Positions 19,869-43,672 of a DNA stretch of 64,000 nt are shown piece after piece. Both the position numbers and the translations under genes were made by a program. Under the pieces are notes generated by a model. The model searched no databases, was not told the origin of the DNA, and was given only the letters and a program-made list of their open reading frames with translations. Origin of the DNA: Planctomycetota bacterium (GTDB lineage: Bacteria > Planctomycetota > UBA1135 > GCA-002748355); contig NYZE01000058.1 in NCBI GenBank assembly GCA_002685965.1, forward strand, positions 3,458 through 67,457, in the 5' to 3' direction. Numbering within the stretch: position 1 is the first letter of the stretch; the number at the start of each line of letters is the position of its first letter.

Positions 19869-20936
19869 CTACTCCTTCGGAGCCTCCGGCTCACCACCGA
19901 AGGCCGTGCGCATCCCGGTGTCAGCCTCGATGTTCTTGATCTTCATGTAATCCATGATCCCGAGGTTGCCGCTGCGGAACGCCTCGGCCATGGCGTGCGG
20001 CACCTCGGCCTCCGCGAGCACGAGCTTGGCCCGGTTCGACATGACCTCGGCACTCATCTCCTGCTCACGCGCCACCGCCATGGCACGCCGCTCCTCAGCG
20101 CGCGCCTGGGCGATCTGTTTGTCGGCTTCGGCCTGGTCGGCCTGCAATCGCGCACCGATGTTCTGACCGATATCGACGTCTGCAATGTCGATCGACAGAA
20201 TCTCGTAGGCCGTGCCGGCATCTAAGCTCTTCGAGAGCACCGTCTTACTGATGTTGTCGGGGTTCTCGAGCACGTCCTTGTGTGTCGCCGACGAGCCGAT
20301 CGTCGACACGATGCCCTCACCCACGCGCGCGATGATCGTCTCCTCGGTCGCGCCGCCCACAAGGCGCGCGATGTTCGTACGGACCGTTACGCGCGCCTTC
20401 GCCAGCACCTGGATGCCGTCCTTGGCCATAGCCGCGACCTCGGTCTTGCCCTTGGCCGGATCCGGACAGTCGATGACCTTCGGGTTGACGCAGGTGCGCA
20501 CCGCCTCAAGCACGTCGCGGCCCGCCAAGTCGATCGCCGCTGCACGCACGAAGTTCAGGTCGATGCCGGCACGGTCGGAGGCGATCAGCGAACGCACCAC
20601 ATTGATGACATTACCCCCAGCCAGGAAGTGGGCTTCGAGGTCCGTCGTGTCGAGGTCAACCTTGGCCTGCACGCCGCTGATCTTCGCGCGCACGATCACG
20701 GTCGCATTCACACGCCGGAAGCTCATGCCGATCAGCTGCAAGAACGACACGTTCGCCTGCGAGAACTTCGCCTGTAGCCACAGGTTGATGTACTTGAACA
20801 GGATGATCGCGAGGATGAATAGGACGAAGATGAGGACGCCGAGAACCCAGTACATCAGCGTCCCGTCATCCGAGGGGCCTTGGAAGACCGTGACGGGCCG
20901 GAGCGAGGTCACCACTAACAGCGCAAAAGTCATCAC
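19869..20936 (-). CDS. floA: Flotillin-like protein FloA (UPF0365/YqfA, SPFH domain)
   Basis: Long near-identical stretches to B. subtilis FloA as remembered: [13 protein letters not shown]...[80 protein letters not shown] lies upstream of GTG 20936 / ATG 20933. Confidence 0.95.
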
Positions 20937-20958
20937 GAACGCTTCTCCATGTCAGTTT

Positions 20959-22998
20959 CTAGTCTGTATCTGTCGTGACAGTCGTCACTACGAGCTGTGC
21001 GAGCTCGACCTGCAGCACGCGTACCGGCGTGCCCGGGTCGATGATCTCGCCTCGCGTCATCGCGTCGAGCTTGCGCCCGTCGATTTCGATCGTGCCGGAG
21101 GGCCGCAGCGTCGTCGCGGCCAAACCAGCCATGCCGACGAAGTCGTCGAGATCCGCGTCACGCACATCCTTACCACTCGGCTGAAAGGTCGGGCCAGCCA
21201 ACAAGAGCTGCTTGCCCACGGCTGTCCTGGGGAGGATGCGAAAGGCCATGATGACCACCGTCGGCAGGGCGACGCCGACACCTACGAAGAACAACATGCC
21301 GGTCGTCGTGCCGTGCCCGAAGGCAAGGAAGACGCTGCTGATCGTCATGACCGCCGCGATCACCGAGAGCACGCCGAAGCTGGGAAAGAAGACCTCGGCG
21401 ACGGCAACCAACAAGCCGATGAACGCCATCAGCACGAGCCAGCCGACCCAGACGGCGCCGGACTCGCTGTCGCCTGGCCGCGCGCACTCGTCGACGATGA
21501 CACGGTTGCCCTCGACCTTGACCACCTCGATCAAGGCCCCCTTTTCCACGAACCCCAGGGCGACGACATCTACTACCGCGCCGTCGATCTCGATGCGGCC
21601 CGCGGGGCGCAGATCCGTTGCCGCGAGCACGCGCCGCCCGAGCAATGCCGAGAGCGTGCTTTCACTCGTCGCTGCCGTCGAAAAGGCCCCCTGCGGTCCC
21701 GCGCTATTGAGGACAAGGTGCCTGAAGAACGGCAAGTGCGGCAGGAACCGGGACAACACCACGCTCACCGCAATGATCGTCAAGATCACGATCAGCAGGT
21801 TGGTCAAGTTGTCCGTCATGAAGTTGCCTTCCATGACCGTCTCCGGCACATAGAACGGTTGCAACGCGAAGAACAAGGAGCCCACCACCAGCAGGAAGCC
21901 GACCCCGCCCGCGATGAAGGTCCCGGGAATCACGAACAACTCGACGAGGACCAGGGCGATCCCCGCAACGAAGAGCAGGATCTCGGTGATCTCCACCAGG
22001 CCGGACAGCCAGGTGCCCGCGAAGAACAGGATGAAACAGAGCAGGGCCAGCGCTTCCGGCACGCCGGTGCCGGGCACCTTGAGGGCGATCACGCCGATCA
22101 CGACGCCGCCCACCAACAGCACCAAGCGCAACCGGTAGAGGAAGGCGGCCAAGCCCTCCGACCAAGTGGGCGTCATCCGCCGCACTTCATCCTCGCCAAT
22201 CCCGAGTTGACTCAACAACTCCTCGAGCGAGTCAGCCCGACCCTCAACCAGCGGCACCTCGAGAGCAAGCGCTTCGCGCGCCGACAGCGTCAAAGGGCGC
22301 ACCGTCAACGGCGACTCTTCGATGACCTTGACACCCTGCTGCCGGCGTAGGGCCAATAAGCTCTGGTCTTCGACGATCTTGGTCTGCTGGACGCCGTCCT
22401 CACCCTTGTAGCGCACACGCACGAGGACGACCTCCCTGTCGACCATCGCTTCGGCGAGCAGGGCCACATCCGGCCCATGATGCTCAGCGATCGTTCGCAC
22501 GTTCTTGCGCGCAGCCGAGATGTACTTGGCGCGCTGCTCGTCCGGCATTGGGACACCCCCGATCCAGACAGGCGTCGCGGCACCGATGGTCGCGCCGTCC
22601 GCCATGAAGATCCGCTTGCACGCCAAGGCGATCACCGCACCGGCGCTGAGCCCCTCTCGCGTGATCCAGGCCACGGTGTCGACTCGCTCGCTGCGGAGCA
22701 TACGCAGCAGCGTCACGACCTGATCCATGCTCGTGACTAGGCCACCGGGAGTGTCAATCTCGAGGATCACCCGGCTCGCGCCCTGTCCCCGAGCCTCGTT
22801 GAGGCAGCGCCGCACCAGTGCGACCATGACGGGTTGAACCTCTCCCTTGATCGGCACCACCAGAGCCCCACCCGATCGACTCCCGGCCGTTCTGCGGCCT
22901 TGGCCCGGCAGCGGCCCGGTCAGCGAGGCCACGCAGAGCGTCGTCACCACCAGAGCACGGACTGTGGACAGGAGCATGGACGCCCTCGAAGCACGCAT
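20959..22998 (-). CDS. Membrane-bound ClpP-class serine protease NfeD (long form) with a second TM+OB (short-NfeD-like) module
   Basis: Signal/TM N-terminus, then a ClpP-like domain (RVILEIDTPGGLV...GLSAGAVIALAC) and a multi-TM block. An OB-fold follows (ATDLRPAGRIEIDGAVVDVVALGFVEKGALIEVVKVEG), then further TMs and a second OB-fold (ATTLRPSGTIEIDGRKLDAMTRGEIIDPGTPVRVLQVE). Confidence 0.9.
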   Translation of the reverse strand: MRASRASMLLSTVRALVVTTLCVASLTGPLPGQGRRTAGSRSGGALVVPIKGEVQPVMVALVRRCLNEARGQGASRVILEIDTPGGLVTSMDQVVTLLRMLRSERVDTVAWITREGLSAGAVIALACKRIFMADGATIGAATPVWIGGVPMPDEQRAKYISAARKNVRTIAEHHGPDVALLAEAMVDREVVLVRVRYKGEDGVQQTKIVEDQSLLALRRQQGVKVIEESPLTVRPLTLSAREALALEVPLVEGRADSLEELLSQLGIGEDEVRRMTPTWSEGLAAFLYRLRLVLLVGGVVIGVIALKVPGTGVPEALALLCFILFFAGTWLSGLVEITEILLFVAGIALVLVELFVIPGTFIAGGVGFLLVVGSLFFALQPFYVPETVMEGNFMTDNLTNLLIVILTIIAVSVVLSRFLPHLPFFRHLVLNSAGPQGAFSTAATSESTLSALLGRRVLAATDLRPAGRIEIDGAVVDVVALGFVEKGALIEVVKVEGNRVIVDECARPGDSESGAVWVGWLVLMAFIGLLVAVAEVFFPSFGVLSVIAAVMTISSVFLAFGHGTTTGMLFFVGVGVALPTVVIMAFRILPRTAVGKQLLLAGPTFQPSGKDVRDADLDDFVGMAGLAATTLRPSGTIEIDGRKLDAMTRGEIIDPGTPVRVLQVELAQLVVTTVTTDTD

Positions 22999-27836: not shown

Positions 27837-29531
27837 TCACGCCAGCGGTGAATGCTCCTGCACTACCGGCGCCTTCGGCAGCCGCACAGCGAAGGTCGTG
27901 CCTTCGCCTACCGTGCTTTCCAGGTCGATGGCCCCGCCGTGACCACGCACCAGCTGATGGACGATGTAGAGGCCGAGTCCGGTGCCCGAGACGCCCTGCG
28001 TGTTGGCGCCCCGCTTGAACTTCTGCCAGATCGTGAGCTGGTCCGGCTCGGGGATGCCAATGCCGTTGTCGGCAACACGTAGCACCCAAGCACCGTGTTC
28101 TTCCCGCCCGGAGATCCTGATCAGCCCCTCCCTGTTCGGATCGCGGTAGTTCACGGCATTGCCGATCAGGTTCATGAAGACCTTCTGCAGCGCGCTCTCA
28201 TCGCCGCAGACCACTGGCAGCGGGTCGACGCGCACACGGACCGACTGATCTTCGAGGTGGTGACGCAGCCGGCGGACCAGCGCGCCGATGAGCAGCGTCA
28301 TGTCGACCTCCCGGAAGTCGAACTCCTGGCCGTCGTAGTCGAGCCGCGAGGAGTCGAGGATGTCCGAGATCAGGTCCTCCATGTAGCGCACGGACTCGGC
28401 GCAGTTCTGGACCGCGTCGGTCTGCTTGGCGTTGAGTTCGCCCAAGCGCCCCTGGTGCATGAGACTGATGACGGTCTTGAACACGGTGAGGGGCTTCTTG
28501 AGGTCGTGCGAGACCAACTGATTGACCTCGACCAGCTCTCGGTTCTTCTTCTCGAGCAGCTGCTTGTATGCGGCCAGCTCGGCATAGAGCTCCGCCAACT
28601 CGAGATTCGACGAGATGGCCTGACCGAGCAGGCCTGTTGCCTGCTCCTCGATGTCGTAGTCAACAGCCGCAGTCTCCTCGTCTCGATCGCACTGGATCGA
28701 GGCTTCCCTGTCCGGGGATTTCTGATCGACCGACTCCTGGTCGACTGTTTCCTTTGCCTCGAGCGTCGGCGCGCTCGCCTCGGTCAGCACCTCGACGGGC
28801 GCACTGGCATCCTCACCGACCGAGAGGGTCAACAGACCCTGCCCCTGCCAAGCGCCGGCCTCCTCGGCTCCCTGCTGCGCGCCTCGCAGTTTCTCCCGAG
28901 CCTCCTCGGCCACGGATTCTGCGGTGATCTCGCCACGATCAAGGCCGTACTGGCGGACCTTCTCCTCGACCATCGAACCAACGACGTCGACGAACGCGTC
29001 GAACACGCCATCGCCGCGCGTCGCGACACTCTGGTAGGCCGGCACGTCGCGGAACTTGAACAGGTCGCCAAGCTCGTCTGACGGAATCAGCCCCGGCAGA
29101 TCACGCTTGTTGTACTGAATGACCATCGGGATGCTCTTCCAGTCGAGGCCGTTCGCCTCGAGGTTGGCCTTGAGCTCCTCGATCGACTGCAGGTTCTCCT
29201 GGATGCGCTCGGTCCTGCTATCGACGACCAGCACGACCGCGTCCGCGCCTTGCAGCACGTACTTGCGCATGACGACGTACTTCTGCTGCCCGGGAACCGT
29301 GAAACCCTGCACACGGATCTTGAACCCCTCGACCTGGCCGATGTCGATGGGAAGGAAGTCGAAGAGCAGCGTCGAGTCCTGCTCGGTGTTGATCGAGACG
29401 AGCTTCACGTCGTCGCGGGGACACATCACCTGGTGGACGACCTTGAGACTGGTCGTCTTCCCGCCCAGGCCCACCCCGTAGTAGACCAGCTTGGCGTTGA
29501 TCGTCTTTTCGGCGAGGTTGATGAAGCCCAT
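27837..29531 (-). CDS. Fusion protein: MglA-type Ras-like small GTPase (aa 1-190) + acidic linker + coiled coil + histidine kinase core (HisKA + HATPase_c), 564 aa
   Basis: GGAG lies 5 nt before ATG 29531. The N-terminus MGFINLAEKTINAKLVYYGVGLGGKTT...STLLFDFLP...FTVPGQ...QYNKRDL...YQSVATRGDGVFD is collinear with M. xanthus MglA. H-box VSHDLKKPL (His codon 28506-28508), N-box NLIGNAVNY, G1 DNGIGI, G2 GTGLGLYIV. Confidence 0.9.
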   Translation of the reverse strand: MGFINLAEKTINAKLVYYGVGLGGKTTSLKVVHQVMCPRDDVKLVSINTEQDSTLLFDFLPIDIGQVEGFKIRVQGFTVPGQQKYVVMRKYVLQGADAVVLVVDSRTERIQENLQSIEELKANLEANGLDWKSIPMVIQYNKRDLPGLIPSDELGDLFKFRDVPAYQSVATRGDGVFDAFVDVVGSMVEEKVRQYGLDRGEITAESVAEEAREKLRGAQQGAEEAGAWQGQGLLTLSVGEDASAPVEVLTEASAPTLEAKETVDQESVDQKSPDREASIQCDRDEETAAVDYDIEEQATGLLGQAISSNLELAELYAELAAYKQLLEKKNRELVEVNQLVSHDLKKPLTVFKTVISLMHQGRLGELNAKQTDAVQNCAESVRYMEDLISDILDSSRLDYDGQEFDFREVDMTLLIGALVRRLRHHLEDQSVRVRVDPLPVVCGDESALQKVFMNLIGNAVNYRDPNREGLIRISGREEHGAWVLRVADNGIGIPEPDQLTIWQKFKRGANTQGVSGTGLGLYIVHQLVRGHGGAIDLESTVGEGTTFAVRLPKAPVVQEHSPLA

Positions 29532-29671
29532 GGATTCTCCGCGACTCCATGATCGACCAGGCGGGAGTGACAGGTTGAGCAGGCGCTGGGGCACATGAGC
29601 ACTCTGCGACGCTTGGCCCGGCCGGAAGGCGAACATGCCCCCGCGCCCCCGCCCAGAACGGGCCTATCCGA

Positions 29672-31330
29672 TCAGAAGAACTCCCAGAGGAAGTCGTTCA
29701 GCTGGCGCACGAACGCAGGATCCTGCCCCTTGACCTTGAGGAGTCGCTTGAGCTTCATCGCATCGTCCAGCGTCAGGGTTTGGTCGACGTAGGTCAGCAC
29801 CTGAACGCGATCCCGGGTCGGCGCCCCCGTATCAAAGACGATCGCAAGAAGGCGGGCCCTGATGCGCTCCAGCCGCGCCTGGCTCTCTGCATCCGCGCCA
29901 CCGGCGAAGGCGATGTTGGCCAGCGTCTTGAGCAGGTGACTGCGTCGCGCCATGTCCTTGCCGAGCCGCCCATAGGCCGCCCACAACTGCGGTTCGGACT
30001 CGACGATGTTCGCCAACAGCACGGCGGAGTAGGTCACCGAGTCGAACCGGTCGTGAATCATCACCGGCGGCGCGCAAAACTCAGCGATCAGCGCCTCGGT
30101 TGCCTCTGGGCGCCGGAGGCGACCGAGGGTCTGGAGAAACATGCGCCGCCCTCGCCCCTCGGCCCGGTCCAGTCGTGCGATCACCTTCGGCACCACCGCC
30201 GGTTCGCCGATTTCGATCAGCAGACTCAGCGTCGTCCGCAGTTGCGTGCCGACCGCGGTATCGACTGCGGCGACGAGGCGGTTCACTTCGCGGGAACTCC
30301 GGCCACGCAGGCCAACGAGTGCGGCTTGGCGCACGCCGAGGTCCCCGTCGCTTGCCAGGATCTCGAGCGTCGGCACGACCTGGCGCCCGGGGATCTTGGC
30401 AAGAAAGCCCGCGACAGCGAGACGCAGCGGGACGGCGTCCGAGCCGGCAAACTCCTCCACCTCCCTGCGCGACAGTTCCGGTCCGCGCTCGCCGAGCGCG
30501 CTGATCAACACGGCTTGCTGCGCCGGATCCTTTGCCGTTCGTAGGCGTCGCACGAGTTCCTTCCGGCCCTCTTCGCTGCCCGCGATGTGCAACTGCCTCG
30601 CGACGACTTCCTTCGGTCCAGCCGCCCGGGAGCCGAAGAGGTCCATCAATCCGTCGAGCGTGCCCCGAACGACGGCGGCCCGGGGGCGATCCTCGAACGC
30701 GACCAGCACCCGGTAACGCAAGTTGCCCAGATTCGTCGGTGTGACCTCGCCCTGTACGAGCTGCCGCAGGAAACTCGCCGCTGCGCGCGGGTCACCTCGC
30801 CGCGCGACGATCTTGATCACAAGAGCTTGCCGACGCAGATCGATCTCTGCGAACTGTCTCGTCAGGTCTTCGATACTCGCCTGGTCCGCACAACTCTCGA
30901 GCCCGCGCAGCGCCGCTTCGCGCACTGTTCGCTTGGGATGGCGCGAGGCGAGCATGAGCGAGGCAGCGTAGACCGTCTTGCCGGAGCGCTTCATGGCCTC
31001 GATGCAGTTGCGCGCCGGCGCCGTCTCCCCCTCCGACAGCAGTTGCTGCTGGAGATAGTCGATCAGTTCTTCAACGACCTCTTCGCCAGGCACTCGACCA
31101 AGCATGGTCTTCGCGAAGTGCCAAGCACGTCGCGTCGTCTGGCCGGGCAACTTATGCACGACACGGCGCAGCGCCTGCGACCTCGTGAACTGCCAGACCT
31201 TCTTTGCTGGCTGTGACGGATCGTCCAGCACGACCGGCGTCACCTCGCGAGCCCCGTCCTGGGCCGGGGCCGCCGAAGCACCTTGGGCAAGCAAGGCAAT
31301 CAGTAGTCCGATCGAGAATGTGGCTGACAT
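29672..31330 (-). CDS. Periplasmic/secreted HEAT-repeat protein
   Basis: ATG 31330 gives the MSATFSIGLLIALLAQGASAAPAQD signal peptide; the listed start is 31381. Repeated HEAT-like helices (e.g. DAVPLRLAVAGFLAKIPGRQVVPTLEILASDGDLGVRQAALVGL). Confidence 0.75.
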   Translation of the reverse strand: MSATFSIGLLIALLAQGASAAPAQDGAREVTPVVLDDPSQPAKKVWQFTRSQALRRVVHKLPGQTTRRAWHFAKTMLGRVPGEEVVEELIDYLQQQLLSEGETAPARNCIEAMKRSGKTVYAASLMLASRHPKRTVREAALRGLESCADQASIEDLTRQFAEIDLRRQALVIKIVARRGDPRAAASFLRQLVQGEVTPTNLGNLRYRVLVAFEDRPRAAVVRGTLDGLMDLFGSRAAGPKEVVARQLHIAGSEEGRKELVRRLRTAKDPAQQAVLISALGERGPELSRREVEEFAGSDAVPLRLAVAGFLAKIPGRQVVPTLEILASDGDLGVRQAALVGLRGRSSREVNRLVAAVDTAVGTQLRTTLSLLIEIGEPAVVPKVIARLDRAEGRGRRMFLQTLGRLRRPEATEALIAEFCAPPVMIHDRFDSVTYSAVLLANIVESEPQLWAAYGRLGKDMARRSHLLKTLANIAFAGGADAESQARLERIRARLLAIVFDTGAPTRDRVQVLTYVDQTLTLDDAMKLKRLLKVKGQDPAFVRQLNDFLWEFF

Positions 31331-31393
31331 GTTTCCGCCTGTATCCCTAACCGACGCCGCCGTCACGCAGACGGGGAGCACGGTCTTTTCCTC

Positions 31394-33097
31394 CTACTTC
31401 TTCGGCTTCTTCCCGCTGCCCGCCCGCGTCGACTCGGGAGCGCTCGTCGGAAGCTTCGACTCCGGCTCCATACGCCCCATCGCGGTGAGCAAATGGAACC
31501 AGGCCATGCGGTAGTCGAGCCGGTCACGAATCAAGCGAGTGCGCGCGTCCTCGAGTTCTTGGTTGCGACGCTGCACTTCGAACTGCGTCTGCGTACCAAG
31601 CTCGAGCCGCTTTTGTTCGGCGTCGAGGTTGCTGACAGCGAGCCGAACGCTCTCGCGCGTCGCGGCGATCCGCTTCTCGAGGGTGCGCAGCGCTCGAACG
31701 CCTTCGCGCACGCCCATGTGGATGTCGACGAGCAAGACCTGTAGACCGCTCTGGGCTTGCTCCACGGCGAGCTTCGACTTGCGGTAGCGGCTCTGCGCGG
31801 CCAGGTTTCCCAGTGGCAACGAGAAGCCGAGCCGGACGACGTAGGCCGGAAAGTCAGACTGCGTTAGATCGCGCTGAAGTTGACCGAACGTGTTGGCCTG
31901 CGCCGCCGAACTGTAGATCGCCGTCAGGTCAAGCCCGGGGAGGAGGTCCCGCCGACTCTGCAGCAGGTCCTGGGTGGCGCTCGCGACCCGCCGACGGCTC
32001 GCTTCCAGGTCTGGCCGATGCTTGCGCGCGTTCTCCAAGGCCTCCTCGAAGGGTGGAATGCGCAACGTAGGGTCCTGGCCCCCCAAATCGTCGGTCGGCA
32101 GGATCACGACGTCCCAGTCTTCGGCTTCTTTGAACGGCAGGACCAGACGTCGCAGCGCGTCCTCCGCGTCGAGGATGGCGACCTCGGCGGTGATCAGGTC
32201 CTCTTCCTTCTTCGAGACGTCCGCTTGATCGGCCACGATGTCGAGCGGCGCCAGATCGCCGAGCTCGATCTTCTTCTCGGTGTTGCGCAGCTGTTCGCGC
32301 GCCAGCTCGAGGCCCTGGTAACGAACCACCCAGTTCTCGCGCGCGAACACGAGCTCGTAGTAGGCGCTGACCACCTGCTCGAGCACCGTCTGCCGCGTGC
32401 GCAGTTGGTCGGAGCGCCGCGCCCGTTCCTCGTGCTTGGCGGCGCGCAAGTCCGCCAGCGTGTAATCGGTCCACGCGCCGCGTAAGAGCGGCTGGCTCAA
32501 CGTGAAGGACACGGCGCCCGAGTAGAACTTGGTAGGGAAGGCGAACGTACTGTTGACCTTCTGGTCCGTGTAACGCGGGTTGAACGCCAACTCGAGGGTG
32601 CCGCCGGTGACCACTCTCTTGCGCAACCCAATCGAGCCGCGGTAGATGGTCGACGTCACGCTCGGCTGAAAGGTGTTCCGCGGCGGCGACTCCGCACGGG
32701 CCCACTCAGCTTCAGCGAACAGCTCAGGTTCGAAGATCGCATCCGCTACGTTGACGTCTTGGGCCGCCTGCAGCACCTGCAGTCGACTCAGCCGCAGGTC
32801 GACGTTCGCCGTGTCTCCGAGCAGGAGACAGTCCGCCAGCCCCAAACGGAGCTTGTCACCATCGCGTCGGTCGGTCGGGATCTTTGGCCGGGCCTGCGCC
32901 GCCGGCGCCTTGCGACCCGCCTCAGGAGTCGGCGTAGCCCGATCCTGCGCCCTGGGAAGGACGGCAAGGGCGGCGCAACTCAGAGCGAGACGAACAGCGA
33001 GCAAGAACACCTCCAAGGGGTCCCTGAGGAAGGGGCCGAGCAGGATAGGGGTGACTCGTCCTGATACGAACTTGCGCCCGCGGTTCTTCCAGATCAT
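31394..33097 (-). CDS. TolC-family outer membrane efflux/channel protein
   Basis: ATG start; hydrophobic N-terminus VFLLAVRLALSCAALAVLPRAQD. Two OEP-type repeats with typical coiled-coil/beta pattern (LADCLLLGDTANVDLRLSRLQVLQAAQDV...; ...LEDARTRLIRDRLDYRMAWFHLLTAMG). Confidence 0.85.
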   Translation of the reverse strand: MIWKNRGRKFVSGRVTPILLGPFLRDPLEVFLLAVRLALSCAALAVLPRAQDRATPTPEAGRKAPAAQARPKIPTDRRDGDKLRLGLADCLLLGDTANVDLRLSRLQVLQAAQDVNVADAIFEPELFAEAEWARAESPPRNTFQPSVTSTIYRGSIGLRKRVVTGGTLELAFNPRYTDQKVNSTFAFPTKFYSGAVSFTLSQPLLRGAWTDYTLADLRAAKHEERARRSDQLRTRQTVLEQVVSAYYELVFARENWVVRYQGLELAREQLRNTEKKIELGDLAPLDIVADQADVSKKEEDLITAEVAILDAEDALRRLVLPFKEAEDWDVVILPTDDLGGQDPTLRIPPFEEALENARKHRPDLEASRRRVASATQDLLQSRRDLLPGLDLTAIYSSAAQANTFGQLQRDLTQSDFPAYVVRLGFSLPLGNLAAQSRYRKSKLAVEQAQSGLQVLLVDIHMGVREGVRALRTLEKRIAATRESVRLAVSNLDAEQKRLELGTQTQFEVQRRNQELEDARTRLIRDRLDYRMAWFHLLTAMGRMEPESKLPTSAPESTRAGSGKKPKK

Positions 33098-33123
33098 CGC
33101 CCGACCTTGCCCCCAAAGGCCTG

Positions 33124-34581
33124 CTAGAGCCCAGGAGCTGTGTAGAGCAACTGCACGAGCAGCAAGCCGGCGCGCTCGGCCGGCGTCTGATCCCGGTAGT
33201 TGGCGGCGAAGTAGCGCAGGCCCTGGTTGAACCGCGCCCAGCCGGCCCCGGGGAAGATACTCCAGGCCAGGAAGTGGACGGCGCGAATGTCGCGACCGAA
33301 CAGATCCGGCTGCAGTGCGTGCCCATGCAAGTTCGCGCGCAACGCGTCGCGGTCGGCGAGGTCCGAGAACGAGAACAGCATCGCTGCATCGGCCGCCACG
33401 CCGCGCGACCCTGGCTCCTTGGACCGCACTTCGTGCAGGTGGTCGTAGATCGCGTTGCGCACCAGAGCCGCCTCACGGGCCGATACACCCAGCGCAGGAG
33501 CGACGCGCAGCAGCAGACCGGCATCAGCGAGGGCACCCAACGGACACGCCCAACGGTTCATCGGCAGCGCCGCCTCGCGCCGCCTCGCCCACACATGCAC
33601 CGGCTCGGGATGGTTGATGACGCTGGCCTCGATCGCGCGCGGGGCCAGCACCGCCGTCGTCACGAGCAGGTGCGCCTGTGACTCGACCAGACGGGTCAGC
33701 TCGGCCGACAGCCGCTCCAAGCGTCCGCCACCGGTGACGTTGGCCACCTCGAGATATGCCGCCAGCGCAGTCGTGAGCTCCGCGCCTTCCAGGCGCGGCA
33801 GGATGCCCTCAAGCCTGCGGAGAGCCAATCGGACCGCCCGGCTATGACGGCCCCGCACCGTCGTCGAACCGGACGCAAGCAGCGCCCTCAACCCGAGCGA
33901 CAAGGCTTCGACACTCGCGTAGTCGGTGGTGACCGACGCCTTCTCCAGGTCCTCCGCCACAACGACAGCCAGCCCCTCGATACGCCGGCGCGTGCGGTCA
34001 TCGGCACCGCCGATGCGCAGCAATCGACGTCGCAACGCCACCTTGCCGCGCTCGTCGTAGAGCACGCGCAAGCGTTGCAGGTCGTTCTCCGATGCGAGCA
34101 CGGCCAGTCGTTCGGCGCGATCGGGCCGCGCCAACAGGGGCGAACTCACCGGCACATCCGGCAAGGGCAAGAAAGCGACACGCCGCTCCAAGGAGTCGTT
34201 CGAGTCGTTGGCCACCACCACGACCGCAGGCACGTTTGCCCGCGCCAGTGCCCGGCGCAGCAAGGGCAAACTGATCAGCAGCAACAATGCGAGCACACTG
34301 AGCGCTGCAAAGACACGGACCGGCCGTGAGTGGCGCAGCAGATACTTGAAGCGGACGGACAAGAGGACGAGCCCCTCGGCCAGGTTCCACGGTCGCAGCG
34401 ACTCGCGATAGCGCATGCGGTGGACGAGCCGGGCCCGCAGCACCGCAGCCGGACGATCGCTCGGCACCGGCGCCTCAAGCCCGCGCAGGCCCTCGAGCAA
34501 TCCACCCAGCGCCGCGAACGGGTCGTCCGTCCAAGCTGCGCTGTCGGTGTCGCTACCGCTGTGTCTTGGGGGCTGGGTCAT
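33124..34581 (-). CDS. Single-pass membrane protein immediately downstream of the ECF sigma gene (candidate anti-sigma/sensor; no recognisable zf-HC2)
   Basis: The ATG lies 6 nt after the sigma stop. A cytoplasmic N-terminus of about 95 aa is followed by a TM (VFAALSVLALLLLISLPLL) and a roughly 370-aa extracytoplasmic helical domain. The function is inferred from position and topology only. Confidence 0.65.
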   Translation of the reverse strand: MTQPPRHSGSDTDSAAWTDDPFAALGGLLEGLRGLEAPVPSDRPAAVLRARLVHRMRYRESLRPWNLAEGLVLLSVRFKYLLRHSRPVRVFAALSVLALLLLISLPLLRRALARANVPAVVVVANDSNDSLERRVAFLPLPDVPVSSPLLARPDRAERLAVLASENDLQRLRVLYDERGKVALRRRLLRIGGADDRTRRRIEGLAVVVAEDLEKASVTTDYASVEALSLGLRALLASGSTTVRGRHSRAVRLALRRLEGILPRLEGAELTTALAAYLEVANVTGGGRLERLSAELTRLVESQAHLLVTTAVLAPRAIEASVINHPEPVHVWARRREAALPMNRWACPLGALADAGLLLRVAPALGVSAREAALVRNAIYDHLHEVRSKEPGSRGVAADAAMLFSFSDLADRDALRANLHGHALQPDLFGRDIRAVHFLAWSIFPGAGWARFNQGLRYFAANYRDQTPAERAGLLLVQLLYTAPGL

Positions 34582-34587
34582 GATCGG

Positions 34588-35349
34588 TCAGGCCGAGAAC
34601 CTCTCGGGCAGGCTGCCTCCGCCTCGCTTCCGCTTGGGCGGTGGTCGTCCGTCGCGCTTGCGCGGACTCTCTTCCTCGTTCTCCTCGTGGTCCGCCGCCT
34701 GCTGCTCGTCCTGACACAGCAAGCGCTTCAATACCTTTGCTGCGTTGTGCATCCGTGATTTCACGGTGCCTTCCGGAATCGCGAGCAGGTCACTGATCTG
34801 CTGGTACGGCAGGTTCTGATAGACGGCCAGCTCGAACACCAATCGGTGCGGCAGCGACAGGCTCTGCAGGGCTTCGCGCAGGCGACGCTTCTCCAACTCC
34901 GCATCCAGCTGGCCGCCGACGTCGACCTCGTCCGCCGGAAGCCGATCGCGCAGCGGGGTCTCATCGTCGAGATCGCCTCGATCGATCGAGTAGAGCCGCG
35001 GCGGCGCCCTGAGGCTGCGATAGTGGTCAATCCACCGGTTGGTCGCGATGCGGAACAGGAAGGTCGACAGCTTGCCGCGTGGCTCATAGGTGGCGGCGCC
35101 GCGCACGACCTTGAGGAAGACGTCCTGGACGAAGTCCTCGGCCCGATCCTGATCCCAGCAGAGCCGGTAGAAGAAGCGGGTCAGGGGCCCTTGGTAGCGG
35201 CCGACGATGGCGTCGAAGGCCGCCCGGTCACCAAGCTGGAAGCTGAGCAGCAGGTCCTCGCTGACTTCCTCCGCGGCTACATGGCTATCCAGGTCCAGCG
35301 AGCGTGGTCTCGCCTGCGAGCCGAGCGCATCCTGCTGAGGTTCTTCCAT
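34588..35349 (-). CDS. ECF-type RNA polymerase sigma-70 family factor with charged C-terminal tail
   Basis: Region 2 (FDAIVGRYQGPLTRFFYRLCWDQDRAEDFVQDVFLKV...LSTFLFRIATNRWIDHYR) and region 4 (LPHRLVFELAVYQNLPYQQISDLLAIPEGTVKSRMHNA) are both present. A ~45-aa acidic-then-basic tail follows. Confidence 0.9.
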   Translation of the reverse strand: MEEPQQDALGSQARPRSLDLDSHVAAEEVSEDLLLSFQLGDRAAFDAIVGRYQGPLTRFFYRLCWDQDRAEDFVQDVFLKVVRGAATYEPRGKLSTFLFRIATNRWIDHYRSLRAPPRLYSIDRGDLDDETPLRDRLPADEVDVGGQLDAELEKRRLREALQSLSLPHRLVFELAVYQNLPYQQISDLLAIPEGTVKSRMHNAAKVLKRLLCQDEQQAADHEENEEESPRKRDGRPPPKRKRGGGSLPERFSA

Positions 35350-36883: not shown

Positions 36884-37858
36884 ATGTTTGAAGGTCTCGA
36901 TGACTTGGCCACACGCGTCGAGAAAGCCCACGCCCGCGAGTTCCGCAGGGATCTACTGGCGGGGCTGCACGAGCCGCAAAAGTGCATTCCCCCCAGGTAC
37001 TTCTATGACAAGGCCGGCTCGCTGCTCTTCGAGCGCATCTGCGAGACGGAGGAGTACTACCCGACCAGAACCGAGCTCTCGATCATGCAGGAGAGTGCTG
37101 CCGACATGGCGGCAGCCTGCGGCCCGGGCATCGTCCTGATCGAGTTCGGCAGTGGCAGTAGCCAAAAGACCCGTCTGTTGCTGGACAGCCTCGATGCCGC
37201 GGCCTACGTCCCGATCGACATCGCTGGCGAGCAACTGACGACCTCGGCAGCGAAGATCGCCCACGACTATCCGCGGCTGCGCGTGCTGCCGCTCTGCGCC
37301 GACTTCACGAAGGCGGTGCAACTGCCCGACGGTGTCCCTCCGGCGCGGCGAGTGGCCTACTTCCCCGGGTCCACCATCGGCAACTTCACCCCGGACCTGG
37401 CTGCCGCCTTCCTGGAAGGCACTGCGCACCTGTGCGGCGACGGCGCCGGCCTGCTGATCGGCATCGACATGGTCAAGGACCCTGCCGTGCTCGCCCGCGC
37501 CTACAACGACGGCGCCGGGATCACCGCGGCGTTCAATCGCAACATCCTGAACCATGCCAACGAGGTCGTCGGTACCGACTTCGACCTCGAGAGCTACACC
37601 CACCTCGCACGCTACGAGGAAGAACAGCATCGCATCGAGATGCACCTGGTCGCAAACAGTGCGCAGCGTGTCCACATCGGCAACGTCGAGATCGTGATCG
37701 CGGAAGGCGAGGCGATCCTGACCGAGTTCTCACACAAGTACGAGCTGGATCAGTTCGCGCGCCTCGCGGCGCGTGGCAGCTTCCAGGTCGACAAGGTCTG
37801 GACCGATCCGCAGACCTGGTTCAGCGTCCAGTACCTGACGGCACAGATCGACGACTAG
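36884..37858 (+). CDS. egtD: L-histidine N-alpha-methyltransferase family protein (EgtD-like, Methyltransf_33)
   Basis: [34 protein letters not shown] matches the EgtD N-terminal signature. SAM-binding [16 protein letters not shown]; FPGSTIGNF. Confidence 0.85.
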
Positions 37859-39146
37859 CGGCGCCTTCGCCGCAGAACTGCTCGGCTTCCGTCGATCCCT
37901 CGAGTGCGACGGTCGACGACTCACCACCGGACACCGCCTTCGACACTGCGTCGAAGTAGCCCGTGCCGACTTCGCGCTGGTGCCGCGTCGCCGTGTAACC
38001 ATCCTGCTCGCTCATGAACTCGCGCGTTTGCAGGTCAGCGTAGGCGGCCATACCGGACTCCCGGTAGCCGCTCGCCAGCTCGAACATCGAGTGGTTGAGC
38101 GAGTGGAAGCCAGCAAGCGTGACGAACTGGAACTTGTAGCCCATCGCGCCGAGCTCGCGCTGGAACTTGACGATCGTCTCGTCGTCGAGCTTCCTCTTCC
38201 AGTTGAACGAGGGCGAGCAGTTGTAGGCCAGCATCTTGCCCGGGAAGTCGGCGCGCACCGCCTCGGCGAAGCGCTTCGCCTCGACGAGACTCGGCTCGGA
38301 TGTTTCGCACCAGAGGAGGTCGGCATACGGAGCGTAGGCGAGGCCGCGCGCGATGGCTTGGTCGAGCCCGGACCGCACGTGGAAGAAACCCTCCGGCGTG
38401 CGTTCCCCGGTCAGGAAGGGCTGGTCGCGCTCGTCGATATCGCTCGTGACGAGCTTGGCCGCCTGTGCATCGGTGCGGGCCACGAGCACGGTGGGGACAC
38501 CCATGACGTCGGCAGCCAAACGGGCCGCGTTGAGGGTGCGCACGAAGGTCTGCGTCGGCACGAGGACCTTGCCACCCAAGTGCCCACACTTCTTTTCGGA
38601 AGCGAGCTGGTCCTCGAAGTGCACGCCAGCGGCGCCAGCCTCGACCATGCCCTTCATGAGCTCGAAGGCATTCAGCGGCCCACCGAAGCCGGCTTCGGCG
38701 TCGGCGATGATCGGCGCGAACCAGTGCCTGCCAGTCTTGCCCTCGAGGCGGTCGATCTGGTCGCAACGCATGAGCGTCCGGTTGATGCGGCGCACCACCG
38801 CCGGAACGCTGTCTGCGGGGTACAAGCTCTGGTCCGGGTACATCTGGCCTGCGACGTTCGCATCCGCCGCGACCTGCCAACCGCTCAGGTAGATGGCTTC
38901 GAGTCCCGCCTTGACCATCTGCATGGCCTGGTTTCCGGTCAGCGCGCCGAGCGCGTGCACATAGTCGCGTTCCTGCAGGAGCGTCCACAAGCGAGCAGCG
39001 CCGACTTCGGCCAACGTGTGGCGCACTTGCACGGTGCCGCGCAGTTTATCGACGTCGCCTGGTGAGTAGTCGCGTTGGATCCCGCTCCAGCGCTCAGGAG
39101 CGCTGCTGGCGGAGTCTGGCAGGAAGGCGTTCGACATGAGTGTCAC
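37821..39146 (-). CDS. aceA: Isocitrate lyase
   Basis: Signature [23 protein letters not shown]-type segment and GSTEAEQF near the C-terminus. The listed start is GTG 39146; ATG 39137 (MSNAFLPD) is an equally good start. A 17-aa extension follows the canonical ...EAEQF end. Confidence 0.95.
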
Positions 39147-40774
39147 CGTTGCGGCGTGTCAAGGATGTAGGGGTAGGCCTCGAGCGTCAGGAAGTCAGGT
39201 AACTCCTTGGCCAGAACCGAGGCAGTGAATATCTGCGCAGCACCCGCGAACCTGCCGGCATCGAAGTCGTCGCTGCCCACGGATGCGCGCAGCGTTTCGA
39301 GCAGGTCGGAGACGAGTTCTTCGACCAACTCGGCCGTCACCAGGATGCCCTCGTCCAGGAGCACGCCATGGCGCAGCCAGTGCCAGATCTGCGTGCGCGA
39401 GATCTCGGCCGTCGCGGCGTCCTCCATGAGCCCATCGATCGGCACACAGCCGGTGCCACCCAGCCATGAGGCCAGGTAGAGGATGCCGACACGCAGGTTC
39501 TGCTTGAACCCGACGAGGGTCTTCAGGCCGTCCGGAACGGCCAACAGGTCGTGCGCGTCGACTCGCACGTCGTCGCGGCGGCGCTCGATTTGATTCGGCG
39601 AGGGCATGACCGCGTCGAACTCCTCGCGCGCAACGGGGATGAGACCCGGGTGTGCGACCCATGTGCCGTCGTAACCCGCGCTCGCCTCGCGTCGCTTGTC
39701 AGCGCGAACGCGCTGCAAGGCAGCCTCGTTCTTGGCCGCGTCGCGCTTGTCCGGAATCTGCGCCGCCATGCCGCCGATCGCGTGCACCCCACGGCGATGG
39801 CAGGTCTTGACCAGGAGATCCGAATAGGAGTGCAGGAAGTGCTGCTCCATCGTCACGAGCGACCGGTCCGGCAACACGCAGCCGGGGTTCGCCTGCAGCT
39901 TCTTGATGAAGCTGAAGATGTAGTCCCACCGCCCGCAGTTGAGCCCTGCGGAGTGCTCGCGCAGCTGATACAGGATCTCGTCCATCTCGAACGCCGCGAC
40001 GATGGTCTCGATCAACACAGTGGCCTTGATCGTGCCGCGCGGGATACCGAGCAGGCCTTGTGCCTCGACGAAGACGCTGTTCCAGAGCCGTGCCTCGAGG
40101 AGGCTCTCGAGCTTGGGCAGGTAGAAATACGGGCCGCTACCGCGGGCCATCAGGGCCTGCGCGTTGTGAAACAGAAAGAGACCGAAATCGAACAAGGATG
40201 CCGACATCGGCACGCCGTCGACGCTCAGGTGGCGCTCGTCCATGTGCCAGCCACGCGGCCGCACCATCAGCGTCGCCACCTTGTCACCGAGCCGATAGGT
40301 CTTACCGGCCGGGCTCTGCCAGGTCAGCGTGCCTCGCACGGCGTCAGCCAGGTGCACTTGTCCCTCGACGAGGTTCCGCCACGACGGCGTCGTTGCATCC
40401 TCGAAGTCCGCCATGAACACGTTGGCACCGGAGTTCAGGGCGTTGATGACCATCTTGGCATCGACCGGCCCGGTGATCTCCACCCGCCTTTCCTGCAAGT
40501 CGTCGGGCACCGGGTCTACCGACCAGGCGCCGTCGCGGATCGGTTTGGTCTCGGGGAGGAAATCGAGCTGGAAGCCGTGTTGCAGACGGTCATCGGTTTC
40601 CTGCCGGAGCATGAGCAGGAAGTTCCGTTGGTGGCGGAAGCGCCGCTCGAGCGTGGCGATGAACGCCAACGCCTCAGCAGTCAGAATCTCGTCGTAGCGG
40701 GAATCGAGCGATCCGAGGACCTCAACGCCGTCTACGTCGATCGCGGTATGCAAACGCACTCTTGGCATGGGCAC
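39143..40774 (-). CDS. aceB: Malate synthase A
   Basis: [25 protein letters not shown] and [14 protein letters not shown]. About 540 aa, typical of the A form. Its stop overlaps or abuts the aceA start. Start is GTG 40774 or ATG 40768. Confidence 0.95.
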
Positions 40775-40866: not shown

Positions 40867-43563
40867 TTACGCCTCGTCCCTCGACACCTCGATCGCCCGC
40901 ACCATCCCGGGCGCTTCATCGGCAGCCCGCAAACGGTCCAACAGGCGGGTCTTCAGGACCAAGCCGGCAACCGCGCCCAACACACGCAAGTGTGTCTGCC
41001 GCTCGCTCGGTGGACCGATCGTGACGAAGAATACGTCCACTGGTCGACCGTCGATCGCGTCGTATTCCATCGGCTCGAACAGCGAGAATACGCCGAGGTG
41101 CAGCCGATCCGCCTCCTGCAGTGTTGCGTGCGGCATGGCCACGCCATCGCCGACCGAGGTGTTCTGCGTGCGCTCCCGCTCCCACAAGGCGCTCACAACC
41201 GCACGCGGGGCAACACCCAGCGCCTCGGCAAACGTCGTCGCGAAGCGGTCGAACAGCGCGTCCTTCTTGGCGATCCGCAGCCGAGTCGCGAGGAAGCGTT
41301 CCTCGACGTAGTCGAGCAAGTCGAATCCCTCCTGGAGTTCGACACGCTGGCGAACGACGCTGTCGTCGCGGTGCCGCTGCCGCGGCGTACGCACCTCGAG
41401 CACCGAGCAGGCTGCATCCTCGTTGATCCTGTCGGTCACGGTGCGTCGAAGCGATGACAGCAACCGCTTCTCCGACGCGGCCCCGATCACGAGCAAGTCG
41501 TACGAGGCGCTCTCTTCGAGCACGGTCTCCGCCTCCGCGGTCCCCCGCAAGAGCCGGCACGAAGTCTTGACCGTCATGAGCCCACGCAGCTGATCGAGAT
41601 AGTCGGTCTGCGCCTGCGCGTACGGCAACTCGGTCCACTCGGGCACGAACCGCGCCAAGGTCAGGTGCGCGCCGTGCGTGGCGGCAAGGTGATCGGCAGT
41701 CGTCGCGACCAGGGCATCGTGAGGCCCCGGCGCGACCAGAGCGACAACCTCGCGGATGTAGCGCACTCCGGCGTCGTGAAAGACCGCGATGTTGCAACCG
41801 AGGCGCTGGGTGAGCCAGCCGAGCGGCAGCGTCGCCATCAACGAGCCGCGACTACGAGCCCGCCACCCCATCACGAGCCACGAGCACCCGGAGGCCTGGG
41901 TGCGTTCGTGCACGGTCCTGACCACGTCACGCGACGCCATGGCCTCGAACTCCAGCCGGTACTGCTTGTCCTCAGACATGGCCTGCACGCGCCGGCGCAA
42001 CGACCGCGTCGGCGCGTCGTCCTCGCGCACGGCTTCTGGCAGGGTCTGATCCGGCACCTCGGTCACGTGCAGCGTTCGCACTGGCTCACCATCGGCGAGG
42101 CTGGCGCCGACCTCGACCAGGGTCTCCGGAGAGCGCTCGTGGCCGAGCAGGACGACGAGTGACTCGACCCGACCGACCGCCGCCTGCTTGGCGGTCGCAC
42201 GCTCGCTCGGCACGGCGAAGTTCTGGCGCTTACCCAGCTTCCTCAGCACGCCGAGCCGCTCGGTGCGTCGACGACTGTAGAGGAAGAAGACCAACGCACC
42301 CGGGACTGCGATCCCCACCCCGGCGACCACCGCATAAAGGCCCATGATCCACAGCAAGGCCAATGTGCTGAGAATGCCTGCCAGCGGCACCAGCGGATAG
42401 AGCGGCAAGCGATAGCTGGGCTTGTACCACTGCACTCCCGTTTCGCGCAGGACGATGACTGCCAGGTTCTCGACCATGAAGATCATCAGAATGAACGCGC
42501 TGGCCAACTTGGCGATGCTGACCACGTCCAGACTCACCATCACGATCCCCATGACGAACCCGGTCAGCAGGATGCATCGCACCGGTGTCAAGAAGTTCGT
42601 GTGCAGGTGGCACAGCGCCTGCGGCAGCAGTCCGGCACGACTCATCGCGAACGGGAATCTCGACGCTGACAGCAAGCCCGCATTCGCCATCGCCGACATC
42701 GTCACGACGCCGAGCATTGCCGCTGCGACGGCGAGCGCCGGTCCGCCGACGACTCCCGCCAAGGTGTGCACAGGCCGGAGGTCTCCTGCCAACTCCTGCC
42801 ACGGCACGTTCCCCACCAGCACGAAGACAACAAACCCGTACATGCTCATCGCGATGAGCAGCGACAGCAGCATGCCCAGCGGCAGGTTGCGTGTCGGGTT
42901 GCGCACCTCCTCGGCGACTGCGGCGACGTTCGTGACGCCGGCATACGAGACGAACACGAACGCCGTCGCCATCGCGAGCCCCGCGAAGCCATGCGGCAAC
43001 AACGGCGTCAGGTTCTCGCTTTGAACAGTCCTTGCGCCGCTACTAGCCAGGACGATCAACCCCACCAGCGCAGTGAACACAACCAGGGTCTGCACCTTGC
43101 CGACCTTGCGCACGCCGAGCACGTTGAGACCGACGATGCCCCCGAGCATCAGGAGGCCGACGAGCTTGGCCGGCACATCGACGACCGCTTCGAGGTAGGC
43201 CTCTAACCCATCCAGGGCGAAGGCACTCTTGAGCAGCAGGCTCAGCCACAGCCCGAGGCCGACGATCGTCCCCGCCAGCGGACCAAAGGTCCGGTCGACG
43301 TAGACGTAGGTCCCCCCGGACGCGGGCATCGCTGTGGCCAGCTCAGCCTTCGACAGGCCGGCCGGCAGGACACACAACCCGGCCAGCAGGTATGCGATCC
43401 AGACCGACGGCCCGGCCATGCCGGCCGCAAGGCCTGGCAGCACGAAAACCCCACTGCCCAGCATCGCACTGACGCTGATCGCGATCACGGCCCGGAGGTC
43501 GAGACGCGCCTCGAGGCCTTTGACCTCGTTAGCCGCTACTGGCAAAGCTTCTTGGGATGTCAT
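40867..43563 (-). CDS. Fusion protein: APC-family amino-acid/polyamine permease (12 TM) + two Usp-like domains + PTS EIIA-type-2 (PtsN-like) domain, about 898 aa
   Basis: ATG 43563 gives MTSQEALPV...; the listed start is TTG 43602. The N-terminal half is a typical AA_permease_2 (AISVSAMLGSGVFVLPG...). The middle holds two alpha/beta Usp-like blocks (LVVLLGHERSP...; VVALVAPGPHD...LLVIGAAS). The C-terminus GDGVAMPHATL...VDVFFVTIGPP is the EIIA-2 active-site region. Confidence 0.9.
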   Translation of the reverse strand: MTSQEALPVAANEVKGLEARLDLRAVIAISVSAMLGSGVFVLPGLAAGMAGPSVWIAYLLAGLCVLPAGLSKAELATAMPASGGTYVYVDRTFGPLAGTIVGLGLWLSLLLKSAFALDGLEAYLEAVVDVPAKLVGLLMLGGIVGLNVLGVRKVGKVQTLVVFTALVGLIVLASSGARTVQSENLTPLLPHGFAGLAMATAFVFVSYAGVTNVAAVAEEVRNPTRNLPLGMLLSLLIAMSMYGFVVFVLVGNVPWQELAGDLRPVHTLAGVVGGPALAVAAAMLGVVTMSAMANAGLLSASRFPFAMSRAGLLPQALCHLHTNFLTPVRCILLTGFVMGIVMVSLDVVSIAKLASAFILMIFMVENLAVIVLRETGVQWYKPSYRLPLYPLVPLAGILSTLALLWIMGLYAVVAGVGIAVPGALVFFLYSRRRTERLGVLRKLGKRQNFAVPSERATAKQAAVGRVESLVVLLGHERSPETLVEVGASLADGEPVRTLHVTEVPDQTLPEAVREDDAPTRSLRRRVQAMSEDKQYRLEFEAMASRDVVRTVHERTQASGCSWLVMGWRARSRGSLMATLPLGWLTQRLGCNIAVFHDAGVRYIREVVALVAPGPHDALVATTADHLAATHGAHLTLARFVPEWTELPYAQAQTDYLDQLRGLMTVKTSCRLLRGTAEAETVLEESASYDLLVIGAASEKRLLSSLRRTVTDRINEDAACSVLEVRTPRQRHRDDSVVRQRVELQEGFDLLDYVEERFLATRLRIAKKDALFDRFATTFAEALGVAPRAVVSALWERERTQNTSVGDGVAMPHATLQEADRLHLGVFSLFEPMEYDAIDGRPVDVFFVTIGPPSERQTHLRVLGAVAGLVLKTRLLDRLRAADEAPGMVRAIEVSRDEA

Positions 43564-43672
43564 GCCGGCGGGGAGTTCCGCTAGTCCATGGCGCCAACGC
43601 AAGTGTTTCCATGATCAAGACCCCAAGCCCCCCGGCAAGACTCGCGAGCAAGCGCACGCGGGCTGCGAGGAC

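Follow-up and report, generated by a model that had tools for sequence, protein, structure and literature searches.

The closest described relatives of the protein considered here are the MglA proteins of Myxococcus xanthus and Thermus thermophilus, stand-alone GTPases of approximately 195 amino acids (aa) with a linked mglB gene, a TVPGQ and an NKxD motif, Thr54, Gln82 and a long switch 1 loop that carries the arginine finger, Arg53. In the survey of prokaryotic small GTPases, TVPGQ is the hallmark of Group 1 MglA, while Groups 2–5 have GTPGQ together with threonine at the arginine position; the arginine beside the G2 threonine is kept by every Group 1 MglA protein and is essential for GTPase activity (Wuichet and Sogaard-Andersen, 2014; PMC4316618). 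The effect of MglB is to bring the loop with Arg53 and Thr54 into the active site (Galicia et al., PMC6876712). An MglA-family GTPase is combined with a kinase in the actinobacterial conservons, which consist of a kinase (CvnA), a Roadblock protein (CvnB), CvnC and an arginine-less GTPase (CvnD) and have no dedicated response regulator. A fusion within one chain is found in the Roco/LRRK2 proteins, in which a Ras-like Roc G domain and a COR domain are joined to a kinase that they are thought to regulate within the dimer. To our knowledge, contact between a bacterial GTPase and two-component signalling is known only via separate proteins, namely RomR/RomX and Frz with MglA, and the conservons. 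Here we describe a gene in a stretch of 64,000 nucleotides (nt) from a Planctomycetota bacterium (contig NYZE01000058.1, assembly GCA_002685965.1), referred to in its full length as the window, that codes for both functions in one polypeptide. The coding sequence (27837..29531, minus strand, on which all parts of the protein named below also lie; stop codon 27837–27839) was taken from the listing of open reading frames (ORFs) and encodes 564 aa, an MglA-type G domain fused to a complete histidine kinase.

Compared with these systems, the window protein differs from each of them. Its G domain departs from Group 1 MglA in three respects, as it has Ser53 instead of the intrinsic arginine, is part of a 564-aa fusion instead of a protein of single-domain size (approximately 150–240 aa), and has no adjacent mglB. 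Since the survey left out proteins of more than 240 aa, MglA-kinase fusions were not analysed there (PMC4316618). Two proteins from the MglA family, Bdellovibrio bacteriovorus MglA and M. xanthus SofG, likewise work without a linked MglB, but they are small stand-alone or extension-bearing proteins without a kinase domain, and SofG keeps its arginine (PMC4316618). The conservon GTPase belongs to Group 2, with GTPGQ and threonine at the arginine position, whereas the window G domain has TVPGQ. The conservon kinase is usually membrane-bound, with a HAMP domain and a C-terminal LPxR motif, whereas the window kinase is soluble; and where the Actinomycetota have four separate proteins acting in trans, the planctomycete has a single soluble polypeptide with no Roadblock or CvnC gene nearby. 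The Roco proteins differ in their COR domain, in their Ser/Thr kinase as opposed to a two-component histidine kinase, and in the type of G domain; in the window protein, Pfam matches to Roc reached 16.5–19.2 bits, below the cutoff of 27, and COR was not found. The conservons are the nearest functional precedent and Roco/LRRK2 is the nearest conceptual one. A preliminary description of the locus, made from the sequence without database searches, had presented the fusion as a direct link from GTPase to phosphorelay that was not known to have been characterised. The first half of this claim has to be narrowed, as a GTPase-kinase link is already known in trans from the conservons; the second holds for the single-polypeptide form, of which no description was found in the full-text literature, a provisional result because most subscription journals lie outside its coverage. 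Ras-like small GTPases and two-component systems are the two principal kinds of switch in eukaryotic and bacterial signalling, and where both sit in one polypeptide, a single purified protein is enough to study how they are coupled.

The fusion is not confined to the window. A search of 5.8 billion proteins gave 1499 matches, and the best 120 of these cover the full length of the protein with 44–65% identity and the same architecture; the counts for the family alignment given below are from these 120 homologues. In a scan with one genome per GTDB species, 156 genomes encode a relative. The 80 genomes listed from these 156 are all metagenome-assembled and planctomycete wherever a taxon is named, with no isolate seen among them, and the named sources of the homologues are all Planctomycetes/Planctomycetota. 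The architecture is already in the databases but unnamed, under labels such as ‘signal transduction histidine kinase/signal recognition particle receptor subunit beta’, ‘ATP-binding protein’ and ‘hypothetical protein’.

The MglA-type G domain comprises residues 1–195 (28947..29531). In a phmmer search of the PDB with residues 1–200, MglA of M. xanthus was the best match (E = 3.8e-53, approximately 46% identity), followed by MglA of T. thermophilus (E = 4.7e-44), while the next families, Arf and Ras, appeared at approximately 1e-5. Pfam, which has no MglA model, gave weak matches to Arf, Ras, Gtr1 and Roc. An AlphaFold2 (AF2) model of the full protein, built on 119 homologues, has a mean predicted local distance difference test (pLDDT) value of 82.5, with values mostly above 90 in the G domain. 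According to Foldseek, the predicted G domain superimposes best on the structures of MglA-GTPgammaS with MglB, 6izw_A and 6h5b_A, with a template modelling (TM) score of 0.92 and a root-mean-square deviation of 1.8–1.9 Å, and it fits the GDP forms of MglA less well (TM 0.81–0.84). The PDB match and the predicted fold together place the N-terminal domain in the MglA family, as had been proposed. The gapless alignment with M. xanthus MglA that had been claimed for residues 1–190 holds up to approximately residue 183, beyond which gaps begin.

The P-loop, G19-V-G21-L-G-G-K-T-T27 (29451..29477; GVGLGGKT being residues 19–26), retains Gly21, the equivalent of Gly12 in Ras, and G19, G21, G23, G24, K25 and T26 are kept in 119 of 120 homologues. 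The G3/switch 2 motif TVPGQ (residues 78–82, 29286..29300), which includes the catalytic Gln82, is invariant in all 120. In the G4 motif NKRD (residues 141–144, 29100..29111), which confers guanine specificity, N141, K142 and D144 are invariant, and the sequence YQSVA..GVFD is also present. The arginine finger loop of switch 1 (residues 44–61, LVSINTEQDSTLLFDFLP, 29349..29402) keeps Thr54, a residue that is invariant or nearly so among the homologues; AF2 confidence is low at residues 54–57 of this loop. All of these motifs, including D52-S53-T54, had been read from the sequence before and were found again in the same places. Mean pairwise identity among the homologues is 0.75 in the G domain and 0.92 in the loop 44–61, compared with 0.57–0.58 in the kinase domains, which indicates that the G domain is under strong selection and is the most constrained part of the protein. 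Judged by these residues, the domain keeps everything required for binding a guanine nucleotide and Mg2+ and for the switch 1 rearrangement of the MglA type.

What the G domain does not keep is the catalytic arginine. The replacement of Arg53 by serine (codon TCG, 29373–29375), already noticed in the single sequence, turned out to be a trait of the family, in which position 53 is Ser in 84, Ala in 35 and Gln in one of the 120 homologues and Arg in none. The window G domain is therefore Group 1-like except for the defining catalytic residue. A compensating arginine in cis was not found in the homologue alignment, as no family-specific invariant Arg occurs in the G domain, where the family-specific residues are V20, C37, E41, V42, L56, P83, K84 and M88. 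As candidates for a replacement, R73, R89 and R109 were rejected because they are common to ordinary MglA, and R507 because it belongs to the kinase part, where it lies between the G1 and G2 boxes, a stretch in which kinases commonly carry an arginine. We infer that the G domain binds GTP but that its hydrolysis is slow or depends on an arginine provided in trans.

Residues 1–195 were compared with 1.84 billion cluster representatives in an exhaustive HMMER search, which gave 5859 matches (E ≤ 1e-3). Almost all of the best 150 of these are long proteins (approximately 300–936 aa) whose N-terminal part is the G domain, and among the members of this set outside the family, Arg53 is present in 136 of 148 and TVPGQ in 147 of 148. 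A Pfam scan of 102 relatives revealed a second kinase architecture, MglA-GAF-HisKA-HATPase_c, of approximately 700–760 aa (P0127, P0132, P0134, P0138, P0145 and P0274–P0378), while most other scanned relatives have a proline-rich tail without a known domain. The entries P0136–P0268 are mostly long proteins of the latter kind, with a canonical MglA domain (Gly21 and Arg53) and a proline-rich tail without a Pfam domain; single cases among them carry a TIR, pentapeptide, ion-channel or PAS domain. In a neighbour-joining tree without support values, the arginine-less family is monophyletic and the MglA-GAF-kinases are its nearest neighbours. A search with one GAF-kinase protein gave 529 matches (E ≤ 1e-20), and the sources of this sister family are Planctomycetota and Acidobacteriota (Thermoanaerobaculum, Thermoanaerobaculales).

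The MglA-GAF-kinases, for example MCE9637339.1 (‘GAF domain-containing protein’), share with the window family, in the same order, the G domain, a Y-[GR]-[LIV] extension, the linker, a helix-head motif and the kinase. They differ in having a GAF domain of their own between the helix head and the kinase, in lacking the C-terminal P-x-P-x-Q-x-x-H-S-P tail, and in the state of the catalytic site, which is the converse of that in the window family, with Arg53 kept and Gly21 exchanged for alanine or proline. Arg53 is present in 106 of 106 informative members, and position 21 is Ala in 89 and Pro in 16 of them (105/106). Side chains at Gly12 of Ras block finger-assisted hydrolysis, for which the G12 variants of Ras and MglA G21V are precedents, and in Bdellovibrio MglA, a substitution at position 21 is believed to impair hydrolysis. 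Loss of Arg53 and exchange of Gly21 for Ala or Pro are two different routes to the same predicted G domain, one that binds GTP and hydrolyses it poorly. The slow or GAP-independent GTPase (GAP, GTPase-activating protein) that the preliminary description had suggested gains support from this sister family. In this natural experiment, the arginine finger has been dropped while the remaining switch is strongly selected, and in the sister family this catalytic site is obstructed by other means; the kinase fusions are a test of whether MglA-type domains work as sensors and not as timers. The scale is considerable, with at least 156 species-level genomes and 529 further proteins matching the sister architecture, and all carriers found are uncultured.

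The C-terminal half of the window protein is a complete kinase core, as first described, with the boxes VSHDLKKPL, NLIGNAVNY, DNGIGI and GTGLGLYIV all in place. Searches of the full protein with profile hidden Markov models (HMMs) found both HisKA and HATPase_c in Pfam, and in NCBIfam the kinase half matches kinases of the PhoR, PnpS and WalK type. The dimerisation and histidine phosphotransfer (DHp) or HisKA domain (residues 336–400, 28332..28526; 2.6e-10, 40.7 bits against a cutoff of 26.9) contains the phosphoacceptor His342 (codon 28506–28508); H342, D343 and P347 are invariant in the homologues, and AF2 predicts a helical hairpin whose first helix ends at residue 359 and whose second spans residues 368–399. 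The catalytic ATP-binding (CA) domain (residues 401–552, 27876..28331; HATPase_c, 1.5e-26) has the N, G1, F and G2 boxes, in which N454, N458, D488, G490, G492, F505, G516, G518 and G520 are invariant. Foldseek aligned the C-terminal 230 residues with HK853 of Thermotoga maritima (E = 1.8e-17, TM 0.72–0.73), with which the window kinase shares the DHp and CA fold and all catalytic boxes; HK853 has a membrane anchor, a periplasmic sensor and an adjacent regulator, RR468, and the window kinase has none of these. The H-box reads H-D-L-K-K-P in the window and H-D-L-N-R-P in the family consensus, so that the fourth residue beyond the histidine is Lys or Arg, where many HisKA kinases have Thr or Asn; any effect of this exchange on phosphatase activity is speculative. 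No transmembrane segment was detected in the window protein (maximum 19-residue hydropathy 1.27), and Pfam found no further sensor domain in it. The fusion is a soluble, cytoplasmic kinase with the MglA-type domain as its sole non-kinase module. Behind the CA domain follows a C-terminal tail (residues 553–564, APVVQEHSPLA, 27840..27875) that is specific to the family, with the consensus P-V-Q-P-x-H-S-P; P552 and P555 are invariant, H560 and S561 are conserved to at least 90%, and the sister GAF-kinase fusions lack this tail.

The segment between the two halves had been described as an acidic, low-complexity linker of approximately 110 aa. This is correct for residues 241–295 but not for residues 196–240, which are conserved and helical, so that the segment is not uniform. 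The conserved extension (residues 196–240, 28812..28946) contains a Y195-G-L motif, a helix at residues 204–224 (pLDDT approximately 95) and a short strand at residues 234–238; its Y-[GR]-[LIV] motif is common to the window family and the sister kinase fusions. The acidic linker proper (residues 241–295, approximately 55 aa, 28647..28811) is variable and predicted to be disordered, with a mean pairwise identity of 0.22 and pLDDT below 50 at residues 242–295. Between the alignment columns of window residues 225 and 300, the homologues have 58–231 aa, and window residues 226–300 contain 19 Asp and Glu compared with 4 Lys and Arg.

The linker is followed by the signalling-helix head (residues 296–335, motif LLGQAISSNLELAELY, 28527..28646), which is part of a long helix that AF2 predicts as continuous from residue 294 to 359, running into the H-box. 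The pattern LLxxAVxSN[ILM]E[LV]A stands directly after the variable linker in both types of kinase fusion, with or without a GAF domain. In a deliberately strict form, it was found in 9 of 15 kinase-fused representatives, in one of 133 non-kinase proteins, which is probably a truncated fusion, and in none of 2660 shuffled tails. When the kinase was removed and residues 1–335 were modelled separately, the predicted TM score (pTM) was 0.62 and the helix head had pLDDT values of 73–91; together with the helix 204–232, the range kept was approximately 73–93. The co-occurrence of the motif with the kinase fusion and these pLDDT values give a hint that the helix head may be a packing surface for the G domain or for its extension.

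Partner genes were looked for in the window and in 87 related loci (80 of them from the genome scan), each extending ±10 kb around the homologous gene. Pfam found neither Response_reg nor Robl_LC7 among the 41 called ORFs of the window. A phmmer search with M. xanthus MglB, the query sequence of which was verified against the PDB, gave no match at E ≤ 10 in the six-frame translation of the window and the 87 loci (1.49 Mb). In the same kind of translation, a receiver-domain HMM had no match in the window, and in the 87 related loci it had three clear matches and one marginal one (E = 0.14). The ORF-based and the six-frame searches of the window agree with the earlier observation that it contains no MglB-like or response-regulator gene, and the kinase is an orphan without a linked response regulator.

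From its sequence and predicted structure, the protein may be a cytoplasmic orphan kinase whose gate is a G domain that binds GTP, is impaired in its hydrolysis and acts on the helix head. The G domain would be a long-lived switch that depends on its nucleotide or on a partner, as opposed to a timer driven by MglB, and the flexible, acidic linker, which varies in length, would be its tether. In one of its states, the G domain, together with the helical extension at its C-terminal end, would dock on the motif of the signalling-helix head; docking would give the coiled coil that leads into the DHp domain a different packing or register and in this way gate the autophosphorylation of His342, with the phosphoryl group then being handed on to a response regulator whose gene lies elsewhere in the genome. 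We give this mechanism only an even chance, because the disordered, variable linker would fit a simple tether equally well. A linker of this kind disfavours rigid mechanical coupling. The full-length AF2 model has a pTM of 0.51, and the arrangement of the domains is therefore not confidently predicted. The assumption that Ala or Pro at position 21 would impair hydrolysis is extrapolated from Gly12 of Ras and from MglA G21V. In favour of the mechanism, Gly21 and Arg53 are both kept in only 2 of 240 kinase-fused domains as opposed to 103 of 131 long non-kinase relatives, a contrast that nevertheless comes from a few large clades and not from independent events. Finally, the search for partner genes covered the window and ±10 kb around the related genes, and MglB or another GAP that provides an arginine in trans could be encoded elsewhere.

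A further-reaching interpretation would be that kinase-fused MglA domains make up a distinct and widespread class of bacterial two-component sensors gated by a G protein, in which two independent routes (loss of Arg53, or Gly21 to Ala/Pro) have turned the GTPase into a non-hydrolysing guanine-nucleotide sensor. The kinase output would report the cellular GTP/GDP pool, or possibly (p)ppGpp, or the presence of a ligand of the G domain. We regard this as improbable; if it is true, such proteins would wire the guanine-nucleotide state directly to the phosphorelay and would be the prokaryotic equivalent of kinases under G-domain control, LRRK2 being one of these.

Among the alternatives to gating, the one that survives best, though we still rate it as unlikely, dispenses with allostery. 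A hydrolysis-impaired G domain that is mostly GTP-bound would bind a landmark or an effector and thereby place a constitutively active kinase at a defined site or in a defined complex. The linker, flexible and acidic in a segment that ranges from 58 to 231 aa, is what such a tether would look like, and the extreme conservation of the switch surface suggests an external binding partner. In Myxococcus, MglA-GTP is a switch for localisation and recruitment that binds polar and motility proteins (PMC6876712). On the other side, no candidate partner is conserved in the gene neighbourhood, and the specificity of the helix-head motif for kinase-fused MglA proteins suggests that the partner of the G domain is intramolecular.

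Gating by the G domain could also involve a normal GTPase cycle, with the arginine supplied by an unlinked Roadblock/MglB-like protein or by the partner protomer and the kinase switched by a GAP and its opposing guanine nucleotide exchange factor (GEF). Ras GAPs supply their arginine in trans, and kinases dimerise, which brings two G domains close together. Retention of Gln82, Thr54 and Gly21 means that the active site could accept an external finger, and the MglA proteins of Groups 2–5 have no intrinsic arginine and are yet paired with MglB homologues (PMC4316618). Against such a cycle stand the absence of an MglB-like ORF from the 1.49 Mb searched in six frames and the absence of a family-specific invariant Arg from the G domain. 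Moreover, the sister family blocks the finger site itself through Ala or Pro at position 21, which suggests that the need for hydrolysis is relaxed in kinase-fused domains. We consider a cycle of this kind rather doubtful.

The direction of signalling might in principle be the reverse, as proposed for CvnA and CvnD, with the phosphorylation state or the ATP binding of the kinase controlling nucleotide exchange in a G domain that serves as the output and acts on effectors. The conservons, in which kinase, Roadblock protein and MglA-like GTPase form a unit without a response regulator, offer a model for this (PMC4316618; PMC12236503), and the fusion gene has no linked response regulator either. 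In the window protein, however, the kinase part lacks a separate sensor domain, hence anything that would feed it, and it keeps all residues for phosphotransfer. The G domain is Group 1-like (TVPGQ) and not conservon-like (GTPGQ), and no homologue of CvnB or CvnC was found nearby in the MglB and Pfam searches. Reverse flow is a very improbable reading of the fusion.

Hardly credible at all is an artefact in which a frameshift or a faulty assembly of this contig has merged separate mglA and kinase genes. Nothing was found in its favour, and it is ruled out by the continuity of the ORF, its codon-position composition, a nearly identical protein from an independent assembly, and the recurrence of the fusion in at least 120 homologues (44–65% identity) and 156 species-level genomes, the sole frameshifted copy (L075) being broken within the G domain and not between the domains. 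The uninterrupted ORF spans 27837..29636, and the GC content at third codon positions lies between 0.75 and 0.97 in all 40-codon blocks of the fusion gene, linker included, which argues for a single coding frame throughout. The database protein P0001, from the independent assembly, differs from the window protein at two positions (L257P and E285K), both in the linker. The single in-frame polypeptide assumed from the beginning, as opposed to two genes, is confirmed by these results. The homologue in L075 (9903–11966) lies on a contig of long-read style, and its frameshift is most likely a sequencing error; a second G-domain copy, considered for this locus, was rejected in favour of one frameshifted copy.

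The start codon was assigned to the ATG at 29531, which is the N-terminus of the nearly identical database protein and of 119 of 120 homologues, nearly all of which begin with MGFIN. It is preceded by a Shine-Dalgarno-like GGAG (29537..29540), read from the sequence, with a 5-nt spacer. The first in-frame ATG, at 29636 and 35 codons upstream, was rejected as the start because the homologues begin at MGF and the GGAG precedes 29531.

No neighbouring gene is conserved throughout the family. Upstream of the kinase gene, four genes on the minus strand (29672–35349) encode an extracytoplasmic function (ECF) sigma factor, a 485-aa protein without a Pfam match, an OEP/TolC-like protein and a HEAT-repeat protein; the gaps within this block are 6, 26 and 12 nt, and the block is syntenic in relatives of 55–60% identity and not in distant ones. 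The close relatives have the order ECF sigma factor, protein of approximately 490 aa without a Pfam match, OEP, HEAT and kinase, with a convergent CarboxypepD_reg gene, while upstream of the gene in more distant relatives stands a double ABC ATPase together with a 439-aa protein without a Pfam match. The kinase gene is separated from the HEAT gene by a gap of 140 nt and, in one relative (L003), by an inserted PALP gene. A conserved operon partner was rejected since there is no universal neighbour, and the arrangement was treated as synteny within a clade and not as a functional unit. A receiver-like neighbour of 135 aa (cluster 16) was dropped, as it has no Pfam match and lies near the gene in only 7 places.

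Scans of the window with Rfam and for tRNA genes found none. Elsewhere in the window, a FloA flotillin-like gene adjoins a gene for an NfeD membrane protease-like protein (19869–22998, minus strand), a pair that is also conserved near the kinase gene in the relatives L003, L005 and L007. On the plus strand, 8811–11942 encodes a protein of approximately 1000 aa with an N-terminal hydrophobic segment followed by coiled-coil-like sequence rich in Ala, Glu, Lys, Arg and Gln and without a Pfam match, which explains the spike in AT skew of 0.44 at 10001–12000. An EgtD-like histidine-specific methyltransferase is encoded at 36884–37858 (plus strand). Isocitrate lyase and malate synthase, the pair of the glyoxylate shunt, are adjacent at 37821–40774 (minus strand), and 40867–43602 (minus strand) encodes a 911-aa protein made up of an amino-acid permease, a Usp-like region and, at the C-terminus, an EIIA-2 domain of the phosphotransferase system (PTS).

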